Source: Escherichia coli
GTDB taxonomy: Bacteria; Pseudomonadota; Gammaproteobacteria; Enterobacterales; Enterobacteriaceae
Assembly: GCF_024298765.1 (NCBI RefSeq)
Contig: NZ_CP101210.1
Reading direction: 5' to 3' (one strand)
DNA length: 64,000 bases
The notes under the pieces were generated by a model that worked only from the letters and a program-made list of their open reading frames with translations, searched no databases and was not told the origin of the DNA. Within the stretch, counting starts at the first letter, position 1, and each line of letters starts with the position of its first letter. Below, piece after piece: positions 20,806 through 20,970 of the stretch. A program made the translations under genes and the position numbers.

Positions 20806-20858
20806 AGTTATTTCCTTATTCTTAAGCAGGCGAAACAAAATCAAACGTTGAGCATAGT

Positions 20859-20877
20859 CCTTCCCCTTACGGGAAGG
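20859..20877 (-). promoter_or_regulatory. CueR (MerR-family) operator dyad CCTTCCCcttacGGGAAGG in the cueO promoter
   Basis: perfect 7-bp inverted repeat read from the sequence; TTGACC -35-like hexamer overlaps on the - strand; correct position upstream of cueO. Confidence 0.75.
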
Positions 20878-20970
20878 TCAAGCCGCAGACACAATTTAAT
20901 CGACAATAATGGTCGTCGCCTCGCTCGCAGTGTGCTAACGTTTATCTTCTTTAAGCCCCTGGTAGAAGCA

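Follow-up and report, generated by a model that had tools for sequence, protein, structure and literature searches.

The question raised by this locus is what a perfect inverted repeat lying between the divergent genes cueO and yacC does, and which of the two genes it serves. In this study, a window of 64 kb of E. coli DNA (the whole stretch analysed, 64,000 nt) was investigated, and we are virtually certain that the dyad at 20859-20877 is the CueR operator of the cueO promoter. The anatomy of the site, its identity with K-12, its match to the copA promoter and its conservation were computed here, and binding, copper dependence and promoter distortion are drawn from the literature. The two genes concerned are as follows.

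19255..20805, minus strand: cueO, the regulated gene, encoding a multicopper oxidase of the periplasm that has a twin-arginine leader and a segment rich in Met (ORF, Pfam and annotation)
20971..21318, plus strand: yacC, the divergent neighbour, of the PulS/OutS-like pilotin family (ORF, Pfam and annotation)

The first-pass annotation had described 20806-20970 as a cueO-yacC divergent region, and both start codons and the annotation fit it exactly, the intergenic stretch being 165 bp long between the cueO ATG at 20805-20803 (minus strand) and the yacC ATG at 20971 (plus strand). The cueO product begins with MQRRDFLK and contains three multicopper-oxidase domains in Pfam, and the yacC product begins with MKTFF and matches the PulS/OutS pilotin family. 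The Tat signal and the Met-rich insert that had been ascribed to CueO were both recovered, as the RRDFLK N-terminus scored 21.1 bits against Pfam TAT_signal, just below the 22.7 cut-off, and residues 347-396 (50 aa) hold 14 Met. A 401-nt query around the region (20700-21100) matched 5424 of the 5426 complete E. coli genomes, with cueO and yacC as the annotated features, and the cueO annotation was found in more than 5,400 genomes. The regulator gene cueR lies outside the 64-kb window; because 5424 of 5426 complete E. coli genomes carry it, it is almost certainly present in this genome as well.

With reference to the site itself, the following elements were recognized on the cueO side of the intergenic region.

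20859..20877, strand-neutral: the dyad read as the CueR operator, a perfect inverted repeat CCTTCCC-cttac-GGGAAGG with the core CCTTCC-N7-GGAAGG (inverted-repeat finder and pattern scan)
20876..20881, minus strand: TTGACC, the -35 hexamer for cueO, which has 2 nt in common with the dyad (sequence reading; the K-12 copA promoter, PcopA, has the same hexamer)
20857..20875, minus strand: spacer of 19 nt, 2 nt above the optimum, holding most of the operator (direct sequence reading)
20851..20856, minus strand: -10 hexamer TATGCT (sequence reading)
20806..20850, minus strand: putative initial transcribed region and 5' UTR of cueO (from promoter geometry and sequence reading)

The inverted-repeat finder returned two arms of 7 nt (20859-20865 and 20871-20877) with a 5-nt gap and 100% complementarity, so that the perfect dyad proposed beforehand at 20859..20877 is exact to the nucleotide. 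The proposed overlap with TTGACC on the cueO strand also held, as the hexamer at 20881-20876 shares 2 nt with the dyad, and the long spacer of the MerR type, likewise proposed, was measured as 19 nt between TTGACC and TATGCT. Read directly, the minus strand gives cTTGACC-TTCCCGTAAGGGGAAGGAC-TATGCT, and the cueO promoter sequence is cTTGACCTTCCCGTAAGGGGAAGGACTATGCT. Of the features by which a CueR-type promoter is known, the CCTTCC-N7-GGAAGG core, a dyad placed in the spacer and overlapping the -35 element, and a spacer of 19 bp were observed at cueO, with a copper-homeostasis gene, the cueO multicopper oxidase, downstream.

By promoter geometry, cueO transcription would start near 20844-20848. 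The cueO ATG (20805) lies 45 nt downstream of the -10 TATGCT, and a Shine-Dalgarno sequence AAGGAA is found at 20817-20812 on the minus strand. In the program-made ORF list, cueO begins with a TTG at 20844, which is 13 codons 5' of the true ATG at 20805; this extension is an artefact, a non-coding part of the 5' UTR at the deduced transcription start. A sigma-70 scan of 20500-21300, which allowed only spacers of 16-18 nt, returned no promoter. This is expected at cueO, since its spacer is 19 nt and thus outside the range of the scan, and we rejected the null result as an argument against a promoter.

How much of this could arise by chance depends on how much of the site is counted. At up to one mismatch, the pattern CCTTCC-N7-GGAAGG matched the 64-kb window only once, at the 20859-20877 dyad, and in 100 dinucleotide-preserving shuffles of the window the same bare pattern matched at least once in 8, so that the bare dyad is only modestly improbable and lends some colour to a chance palindrome. 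In contrast, the composite of -35 and dyad, TTGACCTTCC-N7-GGAAGG, matched exactly at 20881..20859 on the minus strand and was absent from all 100 shuffles even at up to two mismatches (mean 0.00). A related possibility is that the dyad is a hairpin element, such as a terminator or an RNA stem, that plays no part in protein binding, as its G+C-rich stem of 7 bp and loop of 5 nt could fold. The terminator form of this was rejected, as no T-run follows the dyad on either strand, the terminator scan gave no match there, and the two genes diverge from the dyad, so that no transcript ends at it; moreover, the dyad lies upstream of the presumed cueO start. Together with the conservation of the site across genera in fixed register with -35 and -10 (below), the composite statistics and the divergent genes effectively refute a chance palindrome or RNA hairpin, and we attach next to no credence to either.

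The CueR operator reading is further carried by comparison with known promoters. The 165-bp intergenic region is 100% identical to K-12 MG1655 136918-137082, between yacC (b0122) and cueO (b0123), and the aligned stretch extends over window positions 20790-20989, that is 200 nt at 100% identity with all 165 intergenic nt included. Although the window comes from a non-K-12 E. coli strain, its cueO-yacC locus is the same as that of K-12, and the likeness to the K-12 cueO (yacK) promoter is total in sequence, genes, orientation and dyad, with no difference detected.

The first-pass annotation had also proposed a comparison with the copA promoter dyad, and this returned the same -35, the same half-sites and the same 19-nt register. 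The K-12 copA promoter is cTTGACCTTCCCCTTGCTGGAAGGTTTAACCT, and the cueO promoter aligns in register with PcopA TTGACCTTCCCCTTGCTGGAAGGTTTAACCT. Both have the -35 TTGACC, the CCTTCC and GGAAGG half-sites at equal offsets and a 19-nt spacer, and in both the CCTTCC-N7-GGAAGG core begins at the fifth base of the -35 hexamer. The differences are limited to the central 7 nt (CGTAAGG in cueO vs CCTTGCT in copA), the last spacer bases (AC vs TT) and the -10 hexamer (TATGCT vs TAACCT), the -10 of PcopA also being weak; the arms of the cueO dyad form 7 perfect pairs, and those of copA 6 plus a flanking A/T. PcopA is the CueR target that was used for the crystal and cryo-EM structures.

It could still be asked whether a different MerR-family regulator, of the ZntR, SoxR or GolS type, operates here instead of CueR, as a long spacer with a central dyad is common to all MerR-family promoters and Salmonella carries a paralogue of CueR whose boxes resemble those of CueR (PMC1526738). 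Other distortion promoters of this family, such as Pmer with MerR, PzntA with ZntR and the HmrR boxes of alpha- and beta-proteobacteria, likewise place the dyad in a spacer of 19-20 bp, and their regulators likewise act as both repressor and activator through DNA bending and under-twisting (PMC1526738, PMC8169799). The cueO site differs from these in its CueR/HmrR-specific half-site and in the effector, which is Cu(I), Ag(I) or Au(I) and not Hg(II) or Zn(II). Since its half-sites are exactly the CueR core CCTTCC/GGAAGG, as in PcopA, and its 19-nt spacer is the CueR/HmrR requirement (PMC1526738), we consider a regulator other than CueR extremely unlikely. The ZntR and SoxR boxes differ in sequence from the CueR box, and E. 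coli is not known to carry GolS.

The CueR operator of cueO is already known, and it is identical here to the K-12 sequence studied in the published work. CueR activates copA and cueO through a dyad in an extended spacer (PMC5329002, PMC8169799, PMC9396075, PMC4507017), and cueO, formerly named yacK, forms with copA the classic pair of promoters activated by CueR. The -35 element is partly covered by the inverted repeat, whose core is CCTTCC-N7-GGAAGG (PMC8169799; core also PMC1526738). In its holo form the CueR dimer introduces a kink and under-twisting into promoter DNA, and in its apo form it is a repressor (PMC5329002); cryo-EM of the activation complex revealed a dimer that bends the 19-bp spacer, realigning -35 and -10 for the sigma-70 holoenzyme (PMC8169799). 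A PcueO-lacZ fusion is copper-responsive, and the CueR-DNA FRET signal observed in vivo is lost when PcopA and PcueO are deleted (PMC9396075). Comparative genomics lists a CueR site with a promoter spacer of 19 nt for the 'yacC-yacK divergon' (PMC1526738). The copper-responsive control of cueO by CueR that had been put forward from the sequence is therefore supported by the identity with K-12, the PcopA match and published CueR work. The cueO CueR site was reportedly defined by Outten et al. in 2000, a study that PMC5329002 and PMC8169799 cite.

With regard to mechanism, a homodimer of the MerR-family protein CueR, encoded elsewhere on the chromosome, would bind CCTTCC-N7-GGAAGG in the over-long 19-nt spacer. 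When Cu(I) is absent, the bound CueR would keep the DNA in a conformation unusable by sigma-70 RNA polymerase, giving repression. Cu(I) on CueR, or Ag(I) or Au(I), would lead to kinking and under-twisting of the spacer, by which the distance between -35 and -10 would be shortened and re-phased, so that the polymerase could open the promoter and transcribe cueO; CueO would then be exported by the Tat pathway and oxidise periplasmic Cu(I). This is established biology, in which cytoplasmic Cu(I) is sensed by CueR and both the CueO oxidase and the CopA pump are induced, and the cueO window adds nothing new on the CueR system. Its value is that of a positive control, in that a textbook copper switch of the MerR type was recognized from raw sequence with exact coordinates.

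Beyond E. coli, when about 100,000 species genomes were scanned for exact copies of TTGACCTTCC-N7-GGAAGG, at least 120 loci came to light; such a search by motif favours carriers and gives no fraction of species with the site. Among the 124 sites listed, the genes directly downstream were identified by tblastn as CopA homologues in 29, CueR/MerR-family homologues in 21 and CueO-like oxidases in 8. Five cueO-yacC divergons were present among the matches listed, from Escherichia albertii, Citrobacter werkmanii, Pantoea sp., Rahnella bruchi and Yersinia artesiana. These five and the window have in common the block CTTGACCTTCCC-NN-(A/T)AGGGGAAGG, and a -10-like hexamer (TATGCT, TATCCT, GATGCT or TAGGCT) stands at the same 19-nt distance in all five; in the three distant genera the flanks of the box are essentially unalignable with the window. 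As the divergons were found by the motif itself, their 16 searched bases are invariant by construction, and the independent evidence is confined to the conserved bases outside those 16, the register of the -10 and the gene context. Across the 124 listed sites from other genomes, the hexamer at the 19-nt register has A at position 2 in 118, and A2 and T6 occur together in 80, compared with 1-11 in shifted registers. This preference at the 19-nt register shows that the CueR box belongs to a promoter of fixed architecture.

Additionally, the exact TTGACCTTCC-N7-GGAAGG box with a -10 at 19 nt was also noticed in many Firmicutes gut MAGs (at least 15 loci, from Clostridia, Faecalibacterium and Lachnospiraceae), where the boxes sit directly upstream of MerR-family genes that are CueR-like and 28-44% identical. 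This pattern suggests that autoregulated CueR-type operons with the same half-site may occur far beyond the Proteobacteria.

Within E. coli, 5259 of 5421 records match the 45 nt across the promoter and operator at 100% identity, and in the most divergent variant examined, 2 SNPs fall immediately upstream of the -35 and none in the -35, the dyad or the -10. The uniformity is not confined to the promoter. Of 5431 matching E. coli records, 5366 show at least 99% identity over the whole 165-nt intergenic region (query 20807-20971, a shift of 1 nt relative to the intergenic region that is immaterial to the result). With about 236 nt of coding flank from cueO and yacC added, as in the 401-nt query, 3034 records drop to 95-99%. 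The non-coding DNA between cueO and yacC is thus less polymorphic in E. coli than the coding DNA around it, which indicates that constraint extends past what the 31-bp promoter explains.

On the yacC side, a block reading GACGTTAGCAC on the cueO strand (window 20931-20945, plus strand GTGTGCTAACGTTTA) is kept in E. coli, E. albertii, Citrobacter and Pantoea, and nearly so in Rahnella. Its yacC strand reads TGcTAACGT, which resembles an extended -10 about 30 nt 5' of the yacC ATG, and on this resemblance the block may be a yacC promoter.

Such uniformity brings up the possibility that the operator is shared, that is, a bidirectional element in which CueR also controls yacC or a second regulator uses the intergenic region. 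The unusually uniform 165 bp, the block GTGCTAACGTT (20933-20943) upstream of yacC that is kept as far as Pantoea, and the naming of the locus as a 'yacC-yacK divergon' (PMC1526738) all lean in that direction. Against them, about 65-75 nt separate the dyad centre at 20868 from the putative yacC -10, the yacC ATG is 103 nt away from that centre, and activation of the MerR type acts through one spacer on one strand; moreover, the published targets are copA and cueO only, and our literature search found no paper tying yacC to copper. We therefore regard a shared operator as very improbable, and retain the dyad as the CueR operator of cueO. Slightly better, though still a long shot, are the prospects of an uncharacterised yacC promoter or regulator site in the intergenic region beyond the 31-bp CueR promoter, possibly coupled to CueR occupancy, which we propose from the near-invariance across about 5,400 E. 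coli genomes and the block reaching as deep as Pantoea. If this were true, the pilotin-like YacC would come under copper or envelope-stress control.

Rfam gave no RNA family in or near the cueO-yacC region. Its gathering-score matches in the window, all four of them distant from the cueO operator, are given below.

34777-34890, plus strand: tp2, upstream of aceE/pdhR
46164-46241, minus strand: naRNA4, in the yacG-mutT gap
46757-46826, minus strand: STnc40, inside the 3' end of secA
52473-52562, minus strand: PssrA (105 bits), in the chromosomal cell-division gene cluster

PssrA has been described as a Shigella sRNA encoded on a plasmid, and its match here is chromosomal.

At the other end of cueO, the gap between the stop codons of the convergent genes gcd and cueO (19060-19254) is 195 nt in the window vs 46 nt in strain N3, so that the window carries about 149 extra nt between gcd and cueO; N3 agrees in coordinates with the window around cueO and yacC but is not collinear with it from base 1. 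The K-12 gap is presumably about 201 nt. In translation the additional DNA reads as REP-like (…AGCGVNALSGL…), so a REP/BIME element whose presence differs from strain to strain is its probable identity.

Some large plasmids of E. coli and E. fergusonii were observed to carry a gcd fragment and cueO between two copies of ISVsa5 (IS10-like). An example is pTBE6_2_blaCTX-M-55 (NZ_CP154402.1; 4040-4160 of the retrieved locus, equivalent to window 20854/20855), in which the IS end CTGATGAATCCCC abuts the equivalent of window 20854, within the -10 hexamer. With the junction inside the -10, the plasmid cueO is left without the -35 and the entire CueR dyad. As the transposase gene is oriented away from cueO, an outward promoter of the IS would read into the plasmid cueO. 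The same junction between IS and cueO was found in 10 PLSDB plasmids, whose sources are pig, pork and human.
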